Sequence record: MZ726792.1
Direction: 5' to 3' (one strand)
Origin: Escherichia phage vB_EcoM_ASO1B
Length of the DNA stretch: 64,000 nt
Part shown: positions 1,681 to 5,060 of the stretch, in pieces
Layout: each line of letters begins with the position of its first letter
Numbering within the stretch: the first letter of the stretch is position 1
Notes under the pieces: generated by a model
What the model was told of the DNA's origin: nothing
The model's input: only the letters and a program-made list of their open reading frames with translations
The model's database searches: none
Program-made: the position numbers and the translations under genes

Positions 1681-1714
1681 CCCTTAAAGGGTTCTTACGA
1701 GTATCCTTTAAAGG
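1681..1714 (+). repeat. recurrent ~30-bp motif M, copy 1 (CCCTTAAAGGGTTCTTACGAGTATCCTTTAAAGG)
   Basis: Near-identical to 5031-5060 and similar to 2528-2560; contains palindromic CCTTTAAAGG. Confidence 0.5.
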
Positions 1715-1716
1715 AG

Positions 1717-1789
1717 CAGAAGACCAAATACAGCAAGAACGTATGAAATTTCAAGCCAATTTAATTTTGAAAATTTAAACTTGGTCTGG
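1717..1789 (+). ncRNA. repeat unit U3 (same family as U1)
   Basis: CAGAAGACC 1717-1725, hairpin ATAC-AGCAAGAAC-GTAT, GGTCTGG 1783-1789. Confidence 0.45.
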
Positions 1790-1802
1790 CTCAACAAATT
1801 TA

Positions 1803-1934
1803 CAGAAGACCGTTTACAGCAAAACTTAAACAATCTATTTCTCCGGTAAAGAAAAGGCGAAGGTTCGATTCCTTCACTCGGCAGATGTCGAGTTGGTGTA
1901 ATGGTAGCACTTAAGATGATAAACAACGGTCTGG
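1803..1934 (+). ncRNA. repeat unit U4 carrying a permuted tRNA-like module (candidate Y-RNA-like/YrlA-like ncRNA)
   Basis: 5' box 1803-1811, hairpin GTTTA-CAGCAAAACT-TAAAC, T-arm 1859-1875, acceptor 3' strand 1876-1882, 4-nt loop, acceptor 5' strand 1887-1893, D-arm 1896-1910, 3' box 1928-1934. Confidence 0.5.
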
Positions 1935-1935
1935 T

Positions 1936-2079
1936 AATTATCTTTGTAGATAAGTTATTAAGCTTACCTGTGAGTATGCGACCACAAAGGGTGAAAGGGT
2001 AAATTCTAGATTTAAACCCAAAAAGGCACATCGCTACAGACCTTAAGCAAGTCTGGGTAGCTTATCTACAAAGATAATT
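1936..2079 (+). repeat. perfect 19-bp inverted repeat (AATTATCTTTGTAGATAAG / CTTATCTACAAAGATAATT) bracketing 106 bp
   Basis: 1936-1954 is the exact reverse complement of 2061-2079. Confidence 0.8.
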
Positions 2080-2083
2080 TAAT

Positions 2084-2159
2084 GGAAGTGTAGCAGAATG
2101 GTGATGCGGCAGACTTTTAATCTGACAGGCGATGGGTTCGAATCCCTCCACTTCTACCA
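2084..2159 (+). tRNA. tRNA-Lys (anticodon TTT)
   Basis: Acceptor GGAAGTG/CACTTCT, anticodon loop CTTTTAA, T-loop TTCGAAT, CCA. Confidence 0.7.
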
Positions 2160-2164
2160 AAAAT

Positions 2165-2241
2165 GGTTCAGTCGCAGATAAGGTAATGCAAGGGTTTCAT
2201 AAGCCCTATGAATGTGGGTTCGATTCCCACCTGAACCTCCA
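2165..2241 (+). tRNA. tRNA-Met (anticodon CAT; second CAT tRNA)
   Basis: Acceptor GGTTCAG/CTGAACC, anticodon stem AGGGT/GCCCT with loop TTCATAA, T-loop TTCGATT, CCA. Confidence 0.7.
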
Positions 2242-2242
2242 A

Positions 2243-2318
2243 GCTGGTATAGTTAAGAAGGTTATAACACTCCCCTGATAAGGGAACATCGGTGGTTCGA
2301 TTCCACCTACCAGTACCA
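2243..2318 (+). tRNA. tRNA-Ile (anticodon GAT)
   Basis: D-stem GTTA/TAAC, anticodon loop CTGATAA, T-arm GGTGG-TTCGATT-CCACC, CCA. Confidence 0.75.
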
Positions 2319-2333
2319 ATTTCAATAAAGTTG

Positions 2334-2362
2334 TTGACATTGAGATGTGACTACTTTATAGT
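2334..2362 (+). promoter_or_regulatory. sigma70-like promoter (TTGACA-17-TATAGT) internal to tRNA cluster
   Basis: TTGACA 2334-2339, TATAGT 2357-2362. Confidence 0.5.
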
Positions 2363-2527
2363 AACCTTAGTTTTCGTTGCGTAGCGTCTATTTTGCAAAT
2401 TTAAAATAAATGCAAACGACAATGTTTTTCTGGCAGTAGCTTGATAGGCTAAACACCAGTGAGGTCTTCCAATCCCTCATCAAAGAATTTGGCGTACTCG
2501 CCCACGGTATGATTAATAAGGTGGGCA

Positions 2528-2560
2528 TCTTTAAGGGCTTTCTAAGAGAGTCTTTAAAGA
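2528..2560 (+). repeat. recurrent motif M, copy 3 (TTAAGGGCTTTCTAAGAGAGTCTTTAAAGA)
   Basis: Shares AAGGG, TTCTAAGAG and TCTTTAAAG words with copies at 1681 and 5031. Confidence 0.45.
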
Positions 2561-2566
2561 TAATTA

Positions 2567-2648
2567 CGGGGCGTATCTCAGCGGTCTTCTAAACCGCCGT
2601 TAACCGAGTAAGTGGAGTATGCGGGTTCGAGTCCTGCCGCCTCGACCA
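2567..2648 (+). tRNA. non-canonical tRNA-like gene (anticodon-like loop TCT, Arg-like; D-arm apparently absent)
   Basis: Acceptor CGGGGCG/CGCCTCG + A + CCA, T-arm GCGGG-TTCGAGT-CCTGC, perfect hairpin GCGGT-CTTCTAA-ACCGC, only 7 nt where the D-arm should be and 23 nt before the T-arm. Confidence 0.4.
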
Positions 2649-2791
2649 ATTTAGTTAGCAGATTACTTAGACGACCTAAGCGGGTCTTCCTGTAAGGAGG
2701 TGGTCTGTATCTCATGTTTTCCAGAACATGTAAATAATCTGAGAAGGGGCTTTACAGTGTTGCGAAAATACGGTAAGCTTCGAATTACAGT

Positions 2792-2874
2792 ATGGGACGA
2801 TGTTAAGACTCTAAGGCATGAGCAACGGCCTCCAAAACCGTTTCAAAGGGGTTCAACTCCTCCGTCCCATGCCA
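2792..2874 (+). tRNA. tRNA-Trp (anticodon CCA), with extended D region
   Basis: Perfect acceptor ATGGGAC/GTCCCAT, anticodon loop CTCCAAA, T-loop TTCAACT, CCA; D region about 6 nt longer than usual. Confidence 0.5.
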
Positions 2875-2887
2875 AAGTCTTATTAGG

Positions 2888-3556: not shown

Positions 3557-3562
3557 AATTAA

Positions 3563-3639
3563 TGCTCCTATCGTATAATTGGCTATTACGGTTGCCTTGT
3601 AAGCAACTTATCAGGGTTCGAATCCTTGTGGGAGCACCA
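3563..3639 (+). tRNA. tRNA-Thr (anticodon TGT)
   Basis: Anticodon stem GTTGC/GCAAC with loop CTTGTAA, T-loop TTCGAAT, CCA. Confidence 0.75.
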
Positions 3640-3640
3640 A

Positions 3641-3730
3641 TTCAGAGGTCAAGTGAAAGACCGCTGGTGTCAACTGAAGACCGTAACAAATTCCACGGAG
3701 TTGAGTTAGCGGCACAACTTCAGACCTCTT
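3641..3730 (+). other. structured spacer with nested inverted repeats and a U-box-like TGAAGACCGTAACAAA word
   Basis: AGAGGTC 3644-3650 pairs with GACCTCT 3723-3729; CTGAAG/CTTCAG inner repeat; GAAGACCGTA shared with U2 and U4. Confidence 0.35.
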
Positions 3731-3734
3731 TCAT

Positions 3735-3809
3735 GCTCGCTTAGTTTATATGGTAAAACATCACCCTTACAAGATGAAGAAAAAGGTTCAAGTCCTTTAG
3801 TGAGTACCA
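3735..3809 (+). tRNA. tRNA-Val (anticodon TAC)
   Basis: D-stem GTTT/AAAC, anticodon loop CTTACAA, T-arm AAAGG-TTCAAGT-CCTTT, CCA. Confidence 0.7.
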
Positions 3810-3810
3810 T

Positions 3811-3888
3811 GTTCCAGTATCCCAATTGGCAGAGGATGCAAGCTCAAACCTTGTATTAGTGACGGTTCGAATCCGTCTTGGAACACCA
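3811..3888 (+). tRNA. tRNA-Leu (anticodon CAA), short variable arm
   Basis: D loop AATTGGCAGAG, anticodon stem GCAAG/CTTGT with loop CTCAAAC, T-loop TTCGAAT, CCA. Confidence 0.55.
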
Positions 3889-3893
3889 ATTTT

Positions 3894-3969
3894 GCAGGAT
3901 TAGTTCAAATGGATAGAGCAACAGTCTACGAAGCTGTTAATAGGGGTTCGAATCCCTTATCCTGCGCCA
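3894..3969 (+). tRNA. tRNA-Arg (anticodon ACG)
   Basis: Perfect acceptor GCAGGAT/ATCCTGC, anticodon loop CTACGAA, T-loop TTCGAAT, CCA. Confidence 0.75.
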
Positions 3970-3986
3970 GATAAAAAGGTGATACT

Positions 3987-4229
3987 ATGCAAACATTAAC
4001 AGTAGTTGAACATGAAAACTGTGAGAATATTGAGTTTGTCAGGGTCATTGGTGTTGAACACCACATTTTCTTAAAAGTAGGGTACTTATGTGACCCCGCT
4101 AGAGTAGAAAGATTTATACGTGATTGTTTTGGTGGTAGACAGCTAAAGAGTGTTATTTTTGAGACAGTTTTACCAGAAGGTTTAGAAACGAATAATAACA
4201 TTTATCTCCTTACAAGGATTAGACGATGA
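3987..4229 (+). CDS. hypothetical protein (80 aa) embedded in tRNA cluster
   Basis: ORF in track; AAGGTG ribosome-binding site 5-6 nt upstream of ATG 3987. Confidence 0.5.
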   Translation: MQTLTVVEHENCENIEFVRVIGVEHHIFLKVGYLCDPARVERFIRDCFGGRQLKSVIFETVLPEGLETNNNIYLLTRIRR

Positions 4230-4783
4230 GATATTTAAAATATGCTTCATGGATTTTCCTAGCTTTGCTAGAACCATTAGCAGCAACCTTAGCAGTTATC
4301 TTAGCACCTTTCGTAGTTCCATTTTACAGTGAGAAGAAAGGCCACTTACCTTTCGGATTTAGATGGATGGAGACATATGACAACCCAATTGATGGTGACG
4401 AAGGTCATATCGAACGATGGGCTAAGATTAGAAAGATTGGTAAGCTGGGTGTCTACATGCAGAGAGTCGGATGGCTCTGGAGAAACAAAGCTTATAACTT
4501 CTCTTACCATGTATTAGGAAGAGATGTAAAAGATGTTACTAAGTGGAAAGGTAATATCAACGTAAGTTCTGACCCTGAAGATAATCAGACAGGTTATCTC
4601 CTAATGTGGAACAGTAATGCTTGGGGATTATTCGCTTTTATCCCATCAATTAAAGTCTTTGGTAAACAATTTTACTGGAGAATTTATATTGGGTGGAAGC
4701 TAAAAAGTGTTGTCCCAGAAGAAAGAGCATTCTCAAGGGAAAGAGTTATGTTGGCATTCTTTATTCATCCACTAAGAAAGTAA
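4226..4783 (+). CDS. hypothetical membrane protein (185 aa, N-terminal hydrophobic segment)
   Basis: ORF in track; start overlaps the stop of the upstream ORF (ATGA); hydrophobic N-terminus IFLALLEPLAATLAVILAPFVVPF. Confidence 0.55.
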   Translation: MRYLKYASWIFLALLEPLAATLAVILAPFVVPFYSEKKGHLPFGFRWMETYDNPIDGDEGHIERWAKIRKIGKLGVYMQRVGWLWRNKAYNFSYHVLGRDVKDVTKWKGNINVSSDPEDNQTGYLLMWNSNAWGLFAFIPSIKVFGKQFYWRIYIGWKLKSVVPEERAFSRERVMLAFFIHPLRK

Positions 4784-4791
4784 AGATTTAA

Positions 4792-4867
4792 AGGGGATTA
4801 GTTTACAAGGTTAAAACCTCGGTCTTTGAAATCGAAGAAGTTGGTTCAATTCCAACATCCCCCGCCA
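4792..4867 (+). tRNA. tRNA-Gln (anticodon TTG)
   Basis: D-stem GTTT/AAAC, anticodon loop CTTTGAA, perfect T-arm GTTGG-TTCAATT-CCAAC, CCA. Confidence 0.7.
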
Positions 4868-4869
4868 AT

Positions 4870-4948
4870 GCTCCATTACTCCAATTGGCAGAGAGGCCAG
4901 ACTTAAAATCTGTGTTATGTATCGGTTCGAATCCGATATGGAGTACCA
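4870..4948 (+). tRNA. tRNA-Leu (anticodon TAA), short variable arm
   Basis: D loop AATTGGCAGAG as in Leu-CAA, anticodon loop CTTAAAA, perfect T-arm ATCGG-TTCGAAT-CCGAT, CCA. Confidence 0.55.
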
Positions 4949-4953
4949 AATTT

Positions 4954-5029
4954 AGCGGTATAGCATAACTGGCAATGCAACAGTCTCTGAAGCTGTCCTA
5001 TTAAGGTTCAAATCCTTATGCCGCTGCCA
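4954..5029 (+). tRNA. tRNA-Gln (anticodon CTG)
   Basis: D-stem GCAT/ATGC, anticodon loop CTCTGAA, T-loop TTCAAAT, CCA. Confidence 0.7.
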
Positions 5030-5030
5030 C

Positions 5031-5060
5031 TTCTAAGGGTTCTTACGAGAGTCCTTAAAT
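5031..5060 (+). repeat. recurrent motif M, copy 2 (TTCTAAGGGTTCTTACGAGAGTCCTTAAAT)
   Basis: 14-nt exact match AGGGTTCTTACGAG with the copy at 1681-1714. Confidence 0.5.

Follow-up and report, generated by a model that had tools for sequence, protein, structure and literature searches.

The recurring motif of about 35 bases in the 64-kb window (the whole 64,000-nucleotide stretch of vB_EcoM_ASO1B DNA analysed here, a Felixounavirus or Felix O1-like genome) is one family of eight transcribed RNA stem-loops. Three copies lie on the + strand in the tRNA cluster (H1, H2 and H4) and five on the − strand in two repeat regions (B1 to B5), and the locally transcribed strand carries the hairpin in all eight. 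Their host transcripts are long and untranslated, namely the + strand tRNA/ncRNA cluster and the − strand leader/intergenic repeat regions adjoining the DNA ligase gene. Each hairpin has an upper stem of 10–16 bp and a lower stem of 4–6 bp, often with a small internal loop, for a total of ∼17–20 bp; the arms resemble AAGRGUYYUU and GAGRGUYUUU, with variable loops (UAA, UACG, UAAG, UGUU). Words are shared among the copies because each hairpin arm approximates AAGRGUYYUU, and since this sequence is self-complementary once G·U pairs are allowed, the motif is simultaneously a hairpin and one strand-specific word repeated in tandem. The original prediction had noted a recurrent motif whose orientation follows transcription in two distant regions, and this was borne out: the 14-mer AGGGTTCTTACGAG occurs exactly at 1688–1701 and 5036–5049, both on the + strand, a third tRNA-cluster variant is present at 2527–2561, and the three + strand and five − strand copies each lie on the transcribed strand. 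The four − strand boxes then listed (33846–33878, 33980–34015, 35245–35279 and 35408–35440) all exist and each folds as a − strand hairpin; a fifth, at 35110–35149, had been missed.

Evidence for a single family came from two covariance models, R1, built from the five − strand boxes only, and R2, for which only tRNA-cluster hairpins from other phages were used. When R1 was run over the 64 kb (both strands, filters off), the three tRNA-cluster copies were the top other matches, all on the + strand, with 24.8 bits for H1, 33.4 for H2 and 26.9 for H4; among its own boxes it gave B1 58.9 bits and B3 41.8 bits. The best unrelated match reached 13.3 bits once opposite-strand matches of the copies were set aside, these being 14.6–26.1 bits for the reverse strands of the boxes and 12.4–14.5 bits for those of the tRNA-cluster copies (14.5 for H1). 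Conversely, R2 found the five boxes, all on the − strand, at 47.5 (B4), 47.1 (B2), 36.9 (B1), 24.9 (B5) and 18.3 bits (B3), with unrelated matches at most ∼15 bits, and scored H1 at 55.2 and H4 at 60.5 bits. The E-values of both models are rough because calibration was shortened. The similarity among the copies is well beyond chance. A cmscan search of Rfam listed nothing at the eight scored copies (1–8000 at E ≤ 1; 33400–35700 at E ≤ 5), and two weak snoRNA matches (E ∼4) overlapped B3 and B5.

Pairing was then assessed over 22 distinct variants, which contained 251 Watson–Crick, 73 G·U and 28 unpaired cells, with 92.6% paired. None of 1000 column shuffles reached this value (81.1 ± 1.2%), and slid partners gave 37–69%. 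G·U pairs make up 21% of the stem pairs and would be C·A mismatches on the other strand; the one at alignment columns 14/34 persists in 21 of the 22 variants. In six of the eight copies the sense strand folds much more stably than the antisense strand, and the folding energies were −17.6 vs −6.3 kcal/mol for H2 (z = −5.3) and −13.0 vs −5.7 kcal/mol for B1. Over six paralogue types and several genera the stem sequence and one G·U are conserved and the loops vary, and in four further phage lineages orthologous sites keep the hairpin via compensatory and wobble changes. These data show that the family is strand-specific with pairing maintained at the RNA level, and that several Ounavirinae genera, as well as a related ∼90-kb Yersinia phage, have kept the hairpin at orthologous positions. 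Among the functions first proposed, an RNA-level signal is supported by the strand-specific G·U pairs, the compensatory changes and the copies that exactly fill inter-tRNA spacers; a promoter, an activator box and intrinsic termination are unsupported.

In the tRNA cluster, H1 (1678–1716, + strand) is 22 nt downstream of tRNA-Asp and is followed directly by a Y-RNA-like module. From its base upward, the lower stem CUCC/GGAG leads through a 1 × 1 internal loop into 9 bp of stem, then past a U/U mismatch to 2 bp capped by a UACG tetraloop; a G+C-rich hairpin at 1663–1680 precedes it, and H1 and its neighbouring hairpin fold jointly at −22.9 kcal/mol. A compensatory G-C to A-U change is seen in Susp- and Mooglevirus, and Yersinia phage P778 carries a hairpin at the same post-Asp position (29.1 bits). 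H2 (2525–2561, + strand), with a 16-bp stem and a UAA loop, is located between a tmRNA-like RNA and an odd tRNA-like gene starting at 2566, its 3′ end 5 nt before the latter. Its Mooglevirus orthologues show C-G to U·G and G·U to G-C changes, and in FelixO1, SUSP and Mijalis the site holds a longer alternative hairpin with double compensatory changes of its own. H4 (5026–5064, + strand) occupies the 31-nt spacer from tRNA-Gln(ctg) to tRNA-His, pairing 5034–5043 with 5048–5057 around a UACG loop at 5044–5047. This spacer is identical in Felixouna- and Mooglevirus, and two Suspvirus genomes have a single A-to-C difference outside the stem; a U·G pair has become U-A in an IMG/VR relative (L065), and the Kolesnikvirus copy, whose end is 10 nt ahead of tRNA-Leu(caa), has A-U in place of G-C. 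A long hairpin with a stem of ∼27 bp (3140–3230, + strand), ending 1 nt before tRNA-Leu(tag), is probably an extended relative outside the scored members. Its base UUUUUAGAGGGCUUCUAAGG resembles the 5′ arm of the family, R1 gave a weak 12.6 bits nearby at 3134–3165, and the hairpin (z = −5.0) has undergone many compensatory and wobble changes across genera, including A-U to G·U and U-A to U·G; a sub-threshold Rfam match to MIR473 (29.9 bits vs a gathering score of 52) overlaps it. An unrelated long covarying hairpin was seen at 1936–2079, before tRNA-Lys.

On the − strand, in repeat region A, B1 (33840–33879) has a 16-bp stem and a UAA loop and is followed by a (GGUNN)n tract, and B2 (33977–34016) folds as a hairpin whose 5′ arm overlaps the U run of a terminator-like hairpin at 34031–34016. 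Both boxes lie downstream of that terminator-like hairpin and upstream of the next promoter, and so would be transcribed by read-through only. B3 (35110–35149) is ∼20 nt upstream of the start codon of a 200-aa ORF (34486–35088) and is identical in sequence in wV8 and AYO145A. In repeat region B, B4 (35242–35280; −13.7 kcal/mol) precedes a (GGUNN)n tract, and B5 (35404–35443) begins ∼25 nt beyond the start site predicted for a strong sigma-70-like promoter, TTGACA-16-TATACT (35500–35473; 11/12 matches). Box number varies along with a two-gene cassette: there are five each in the window, wV8 and AYO145A, one in ASO1A (B5 being the sole box kept) and none in Mordin. ASO1A and Mordin have a weaker copy in the leader of the operon that comprises the Ro60-like gene and tRNA cluster.

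We tentatively favor a role for the hairpins as double-strand-specific processing or ‘punctuation’ signals of these untranslated transcripts, with host RNase III as the prime candidate enzyme. Cleavage by RNase III would separate neighbours (tRNA from tRNA, tmRNA-like RNA from tRNA, tRNA from Y-like RNA, and leader from mRNA), and the leftover hairpin halves would shield the new RNA ends. The reciprocal covariance models, with their clear gap to background, and the strand-specific RNA pairing kept by orthologous changes are consistent with such a role, as is the placement of H4, H2 and the Kolesnikvirus and Yersinia-phage copies at RNA-unit borders. The G·U is near-invariant and the stem sequence conserved, and therefore recognition by a specific factor, and not mere stability, is suggested. 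The architecture, about two helical turns (17–20 bp) of mostly double-stranded RNA with small internal loops, non-coding and on the transcribed strand, is of the class of T7 RNase III sites. Those sites (R0.3, R0.5, R1, R1.1, R1.3, R3.8 and others) are likewise paralogous imperfect hairpins of ∼35–50 nt with conserved stem sequence, and both sets are dispersed over the non-coding spacers of long polycistronic transcripts, always on the transcribed strand, and combine an upper stem of at least 10–12 bp with an internal loop and a lower stem. However, sequence similarity between them is absent, R1 giving nothing above 9.4 bits against T7 1–12000, which holds six R sites; T7 sites have a conserved asymmetric internal loop that is not seen in the present family, and the family is G·U-rich, is found between tRNA genes, and its cleavage is putative. 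It also counts against processing that H1 and H4 have upper stems of just 10–11 bp and lower stems that borrow tRNA acceptor-stem nucleotides or are interrupted, and that B1 and B2 would be reached by read-through transcription alone. Processing hairpins of the T4 tRNA cluster reportedly are also structured spacers directly 5′ of tRNAs in long precursors, and Pragai and Apirion are said to have described RNase III processing upstream of tRNA-Gln in that cluster in 1981; unlike these, the family described here has members beyond the tRNA cluster too, in an mRNA leader/intergenic region. We found no transcriptome or end-mapping study in the literature for any Felix O1-like phage.

RNase III normally requires little sequence specificity, and the conserved stem and G·U thus fit a sequence-specific RNA-binding protein, of phage or host, at least as well. 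We regard such a binding site, where cleavage is not the primary event, as possible though less probable than processing; the protein might regulate transcript stability or translation, or be a processive antitermination factor, with the G·U and stem as identity elements. In its favour are the variable loops on a conserved stem and G·U, the position of B5 ∼25 nt past a strong promoter, the weaker copy in the Ro60-like/tRNA operon leader and the statement in the Felix O1 genome paper that how transcription passes the many terminators is unknown (PMC3185647). However, no candidate protein was identified, the spots between abutting tRNAs are odd for a regulator site, and the distance to the promoter is inconstant (+25, +60, +165 and more than +700). 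Lambda nut and rrn boxB-boxA elements are likewise short transcribed-strand RNA hairpins past early promoters in terminator-rich early regions. Lambda boxB is a 5-bp stem with a GNRA-like pentaloop, and boxA is single-stranded CGCUCUUA or GCUCUUUAACAA. Direct reading of the aligned copies led us to reject this identity for the family, whose stems are 10–16 bp, whose loops are non-GNRA and variable, and several of whose copies are far from any promoter; the 3′ arm has a boxA-like UCUUU(U)AA, but this is buried in the stem. A passive structure that blocks 3′–5′ exonucleases, insulates RNA folding or hides Rho loading sites without specific recognition appears doubtful. Both host regions are untranslated and structure-rich, other covarying long hairpins precede tRNAs (1936–2079 before Lys, 3140–3230 before Leu), and two quite different hairpins alternate at the H2 site among phages, suggesting that the hairpin per se matters there. 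Yet such a structure leaves unexplained why the stem sequence and weak G·U pairs are conserved with no drift to stronger pairs, why two distant regions share one word, and why two genera have exactly the same 31-nt Gln-His spacer, with a single base different in a third. In an unlikely, more specialised version of recognition, an RNA-handling system specific to Ounavirinae would use the hairpins as dedicated sites and the conserved G·U as identity element. They could for instance be structured 3′ trailers or spacers removed via the phage Ro60-like protein and its Y-RNA-like partners; this pair, encoded at the head of the tRNA cluster, could recruit a host exoribonuclease, for which bacterial Rsr-Y RNA-PNPase is a precedent. 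If so, the hairpin family, Ro60 homologue and Y-like RNAs would form one phage-encoded RNA maturation/quality-control module.

An element acting in DNA, whether a phage-specific promoter, an activator or operator, or a recombination/homing target read as an imperfect palindrome, is highly improbable. Some boxes do form perfect DNA palindromes in their outer parts (CACTTAA...TTAAGTG), the box count follows the two-gene cassette and the H2 site is mosaic among phages, but the G·U pairs are DNA mismatches at conserved positions, orthologous substitutions make G·U pairs and not restored palindromes, and the orientation is always that of transcription. We considered sigma-70 promoters and rejected them, as no −35/−10 hexamers with 16–18 bp spacing lie inside the copies. 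Sigma-70-like sites at 35500–35473 and 33723–33695 fall outside the boxes, a weak promoter-like site (9/12 matches, 35118–35089) touches only the outermost bases of B3, and the promoters annotated in ASO1A (2334–2362 and 6226–6254) overlap no copy. A promoter or activator box is unsupported because promoters lie outside the boxes, one copy fills an inter-tRNA gap, and orthologous G·U pairs would mismatch in DNA; further, the genome paper states that Felix O1 has no RNA polymerase of its own (PMC3185647). We consider an intrinsic terminator or attenuator the least probable reading. B2 does abut a terminator-like G+C-rich hairpin with a U run, and H1 follows the G+C-rich hairpin at 1663–1680, but no copy combines a G+C-rich stem of its own with a U run after it, and intrinsic termination is therefore unsupported. 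The copies are A+U- and G·U-rich (30–46% G+C), no U run follows any of them in the sequences read, and a terminator scan of 33500–35600 gave one site, the separate hairpin beside B2 at 34031–34016. A stop at H1, H2 or H4 would also lose the tRNAs further on, none of which has a promoter of its own close by.

Felix O1-like phages are used in Salmonella typing, biocontrol and therapy. The organisation and timing of their transcripts are described as unknown in the genome paper (PMC3185647). The conserved strand-specific RNA element provides a concrete handle on transcript processing in these phages: it marks borders between tRNAs, the tmRNA-like RNA and the Y-RNA-like RNAs, and recurs in the early-gene leader. 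Covariation, a conserved G·U and eight copies per genome make it a candidate new RNA family. Observed nearby were (GGUNN)n tracts, a tmRNA-like tag-coding RNA and a Ro60-fold protein gene with four Y-RNA-like modules after it. The tRNA cluster is thus a composite ncRNA locus with a Ro60/Y-RNA-like system among its components, and the region calls for different annotation in several hundred deposited genomes.

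The exact 14-mer AGGGTTCTTACGAG was found at 1688-1701 and 5036-5049, a third variant of the motif at 2527-2561, and the four named - strand boxes were located, to which a fifth at 35110-35149 was added. Every copy folds as a hairpin on the locally transcribed strand. The copies of the tRNA cluster lie on the + strand (H1, 1678-1716; H2, 2525-2561; H4, 5026-5064) and the boxes on the - strand (B1, 33840-33879, and B2, 33977-34016, in repeat region A; B3, 35110-35149; B4, 35242-35280, and B5, 35404-35443, in repeat region B). A covariance model built from the five boxes alone (R1) was searched against both strands of the whole window with filters off. 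The best matches after the boxes themselves were H2 (33.4 bits), H4 (26.9 bits) and H1 (24.8 bits), all on the + strand. Opposite strands of the boxes scored 14.6-26.1 bits and reverse strands of the tRNA-cluster copies 14.5 and 12.4 bits, with a ceiling of 13.3 bits for unrelated sequence in the window. A second model (R2), for which tRNA-cluster hairpins of other phages were the sole input and which contains neither box nor window sequence, detected the boxes on the - strand in every case, at 47.5, 47.1, 36.9, 24.9 and 18.3 bits, with unrelated matches at or below ~15 bits. E-values of both models are rough, and the argument therefore rests on the gap in bit scores. The original prediction of one motif recurring in two distant regions was thus borne out by both models and extended to eight copies. 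The arm consensus approximates AAGRGUYYUU, which pairs with itself once G.U is permitted, so that the hairpin is also a tandem repeat of one word; since the complement of this word, AARRACYCUU, is unlike it, the likeness appears to track the strand, as had been noticed.

Pairing was counted by script over 22 distinct sense-strand variants, drawn from the window, FelixO1, SUSP2, Sf13, Mijalis, Mordin, SFPB, wV8, AYO145A and two IMG/VR relatives. On the model-fitted alignment, which is biased towards structure and from which antisense rows were removed, the 16 stem positions gave 251 Watson-Crick, 73 G.U and 28 unpaired cells, or 92.6% paired. Two controls counted on the same alignment gave 81.1 +/- 1.2% when columns were shuffled, none of 1000 shuffles reaching the observed value, and 37-69% when partners were slid. 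A MAFFT alignment of 23 variants set the paralogue types one column out of register and was not used for these counts. One stem pair is G.U in 21 of the 22 variants, and three more are mostly U.G. Because G.U pairs become C.A mismatches on the opposite strand, the sense strand is far more stable than the antisense in six of the eight copies (-17.6 versus -6.3 kcal/mol for H2). H1 and H4 have few G.U pairs, and their orientation rests on the model scores.

Comparison of orthologous sites is independent of the model-fitted alignment. H4 makes up the 31-nt spacer that separates tRNA-Gln(ctg) from tRNA-His. This spacer is identical in Felixounavirus and Mooglevirus; its sole difference in two Suspvirus genomes is a single A-to-C outside the stem, and one IMG/VR relative has U-A in place of U.G. 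In Kolesnikvirus (Erwinia phage Tian and Hafnia phage SPARTY), the same core, GGUUCUUACGAGAGUC, precedes tRNA-Leu(caa) and carries a compensatory change from G-C to A-U. H1, downstream of tRNA-Asp, shows G-C to A-U in Suspvirus and Mooglevirus, and at this post-Asp site a hairpin of the family (29.1 bits) also occurs in a Yersinia phage of ~90 kb whose gene order is the same. H2 changes from C-G to U.G and from G.U to G-C in Mooglevirus, and its site in FelixO1, SUSP1/2 and Mijalis is occupied instead by a longer hairpin with double compensatory changes of its own. Long hairpins at 3140-3230, before tRNA-Leu(tag), and at 1936-2079 on the + strand, where a 22-24-bp stem encloses ~100 nt directly before tRNA-Lys(ttt), also covary, including A-U to G.U and U-A to U.G. 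A further structured spacer, at 3640-3734 (+ strand), separates tRNA-Thr from tRNA-Val and forms an irregular hairpin of 95 nt (-30.7 kcal/mol), its arms reading GAGGUC/GACCUC and its interior holding GAAGACCG words; both this spacer and the one before tRNA-Lys(ttt) are covarying or conserved across genera.

By genome-wide scans, the number of boxes is one in ASO1A, five each in wV8 and AYO145A, and zero in Mordin, and the three tRNA-cluster copies are kept in all these genomes. As the latter are constant and box number varies, the tRNA-cluster copies are a widely shared set and the boxes a Felixounavirus-specific expansion. The operon whose start is upstream of the Ro60-like gene has a further, weak copy in its leader. 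Likeness of UAAGAGGGU to a Shine-Dalgarno sequence was considered and set aside, the leader copy, outside the window, being the only one near a start codon. An IMG/VR pattern scan for GGTTCTTACGAGWRTC returned 61 loci; those outside Ounavirinae had neither hairpin arms nor a nearby tRNA and were judged to be chance, so that the scan added no distant relatives. These outside matches read like a G-S-Y-E-Y coding stretch.

Over positions 900-6300 the window matches Escherichia phage vB_EcoM_ASO1A (Felixounavirus, Ounavirinae) at 100% identity and many Felix O1-like phages at 94-98%. The 25 tRNA genes called by ARAGORN at 993-6144 are all on the + strand. Within this cluster H1 separates tRNA-Asp from a Y-RNA-like module, H2 separates a tmRNA-like RNA from the tRNA-like gene that comes after it, and H4 fills a tRNA-tRNA spacer. 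The window differs from ASO1A in the interval from the DNA ligase gene to the next gene on the - strand, where ~1.5 kb of extra sequence holds two ORFs (34043-34483 and 34486-35088) with repeat regions A and B on either side. This two-gene cassette and its repeat regions span 33680-35500; the cassette is missing in ASO1A and Mordin, and has the look of an insertion with duplicated leader modules at its borders. The ORFs encode 146 and 200 aa and belong to PHROGs 5926 and 4652, of unknown function.

Repeat region B is headed by a strong sigma-70-like promoter (35500-35473, - strand, TTGACA-16-TATACT), and B5 lies ~25 nt downstream of its predicted start. Reading along the - strand, the promoter and B5 are followed by a (GGUNN)n tract, a small hairpin, B4, a second tract, a second small hairpin and B3, after which comes the ribosome-binding site of the 200-aa ORF. 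Region A runs from a terminator-like hairpin through B2, a tract, B1 and a further tract to the next promoter.

The original prediction had offered a promoter or a termination signal among its readings, and neither held. Sigma-70-like hexamers lie outside the copies, save for a single weak site overlapping the margin of B3, and the copies are without the G+C-rich stem and U run of an intrinsic terminator, so that a terminator is unlikely. An element acting at the DNA level is likewise unlikely: RNA, unlike a DNA palindrome, tolerates substitutions that give rise to wobble pairs, and the comparison of sequences thus indicates that the hairpin works as RNA. Decay from a tRNA T arm, suggested by the AGGGTTC that the 14-mer core has in common with it, was rejected as a sufficient account, because GGTTC is missing from the boxes and because the two regions align over the entire 35-40-nt hairpin. 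In Rfam no family matched the scored copies, and only sub-threshold, chance-level matches overlapped a long hairpin and two boxes.

We tentatively suggest that the hairpins may be a recognised double-stranded RNA signal that punctuates transcripts. Such a role would fit their roughly two helical turns of mostly paired stem with small internal loops, the conservation of stem sequence beside variable loops, and the location of copies exactly where one mature RNA unit borders on the next within long untranslated transcripts. Host RNase III would be the obvious candidate enzyme. The closest analogue is the set of T7 RNase III sites, whose hairpins likewise form a paralogous family with conserved sequence in intergenic transcripts, although these are unrelated in sequence and a profile comparison found no similarity. 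Recognition by a sequence-specific binding protein, which seems somewhat improbable to us, would account for the conserved G.U pairs and stem sequence nearly as well as an RNase III-type signal does. That the hairpins serve structure alone, by blocking exonucleases, insulating folding or avoiding Rho, is doubtful, as this leaves the sequence conservation unexplained. A phage endoribonuclease was also considered because gp003 of Mordin is annotated as 'similar to T4 RegB', and was dropped; Pfam gave only a weak SLT match for the ASO1A homologue. A literature search for a Felix O1-type transcriptome or a mention of the hairpins returned genome papers only, which list other repeats; those of Felix O1 and UAB_Phi87 do not mention the family. 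A direct repeat of 58 bp, named 'DR_4', is annotated for the repeat regions in the wV8 record.

The (GGUNN)n tracts that follow the box hairpins on the - strand (33745-33840, 33885-33975, 35170-35240 and 35295-35400) carry ~12-17 GGU triplets, one every 5 nt, and on the transcribed strand they are rich in G and poor in C. Each ends in a small covarying hairpin, with variants such as AGUCUCA...UGAGACU versus UAAUCG...CGAUUA and GGUAG...CUACC versus GGCAG...CUGCC. The tracts are possibly protein-binding arrays, two-tetrad quadruplex formers or runs complementary to the anti-Shine-Dalgarno. An inverted repeat, GGTGAGTA...TACTCACC at 35455-35490 (- strand), covers the -10 hexamer of the strong promoter upstream of B5 together with the initial ~25 nt of its transcript, and is a possible operator.

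Just upstream of the tRNA cluster lies a + strand gene (window 1-827, ending at 827; full gene L001:13-1428) with Pfam DUF2828 and DUF7788, assigned to PHROG 850, 'RNA-binding protein'. A sequence search of its product against the PDB gave no match. We modelled the full-length homologue P0001, 98% identical to the window fragment, with AlphaFold and a 40-sequence alignment (pLDDT 89.9, pTM 0.89). The top 12 Foldseek matches in the PDB were all Ro60/Rsr (Thermus phage phiLo, Xenopus, human and Deinococcus Rsr; E 3e-8 to 2e-6, TM up to 0.65), and by its predicted fold the gene encodes a Ro60 homologue (TROVE ring and vWA).

Four Y-RNA-like modules occupy tRNA spacers on the + strand (1158-1241, 1325-1390, 1715-1792 and 1798-1938). 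They have in common a CAGAAGACC...GGUCUGG stem, a 5' AGA bulge, an AGACC/GGUCU helix and a conserved UACAGCAA, and their outer helix covaries (UGAC/GUCA, UUGC/GCAA, UUAC/GUAA). The fourth contains a V hairpin, T arm, closed acceptor stem and D arm, ordered as in the Y RNA YrlA. Rfam gave no Y RNA or YrlA match at the modules. Every cluster headed by the Ro60-like gene has them: those of three genera and that of Yersinia phage P778, in which compensatory changes are seen. Kolesnikvirus has no modules and lacks the gene at this position.

Downstream of a sigma-70 promoter at 2334-2362 lies a tmRNA-like RNA (2369-2526, + strand), with weak Rfam tmRNA matches of 16 and 29 bits and no call by ARAGORN. 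Its tag frame (2412-2447), preceded on the 5' side by AAAAUAAAU, reads GCA AAC GAC AAT GTT TTT CTG GCA GTA GCT TGA TAG, that is, ANDNVFLAVA followed by two stops, and is kept with synonymous changes in Felixounavirus, Suspvirus, Mooglevirus and Kolesnikvirus. The atypical tRNA-like gene at 2566-2645 (+ strand) was missed by ARAGORN and scored 31.7 bits with the Rfam tRNA model. By reading, its acceptor stem has C1-G72, G2-C71 and G3.U70 with A73-CCA, and it has no D arm, a long variable region and UCU in the anticodon loop; the equivalent position in Mooglevirus holds an ordinary tRNA-Arg(tct).
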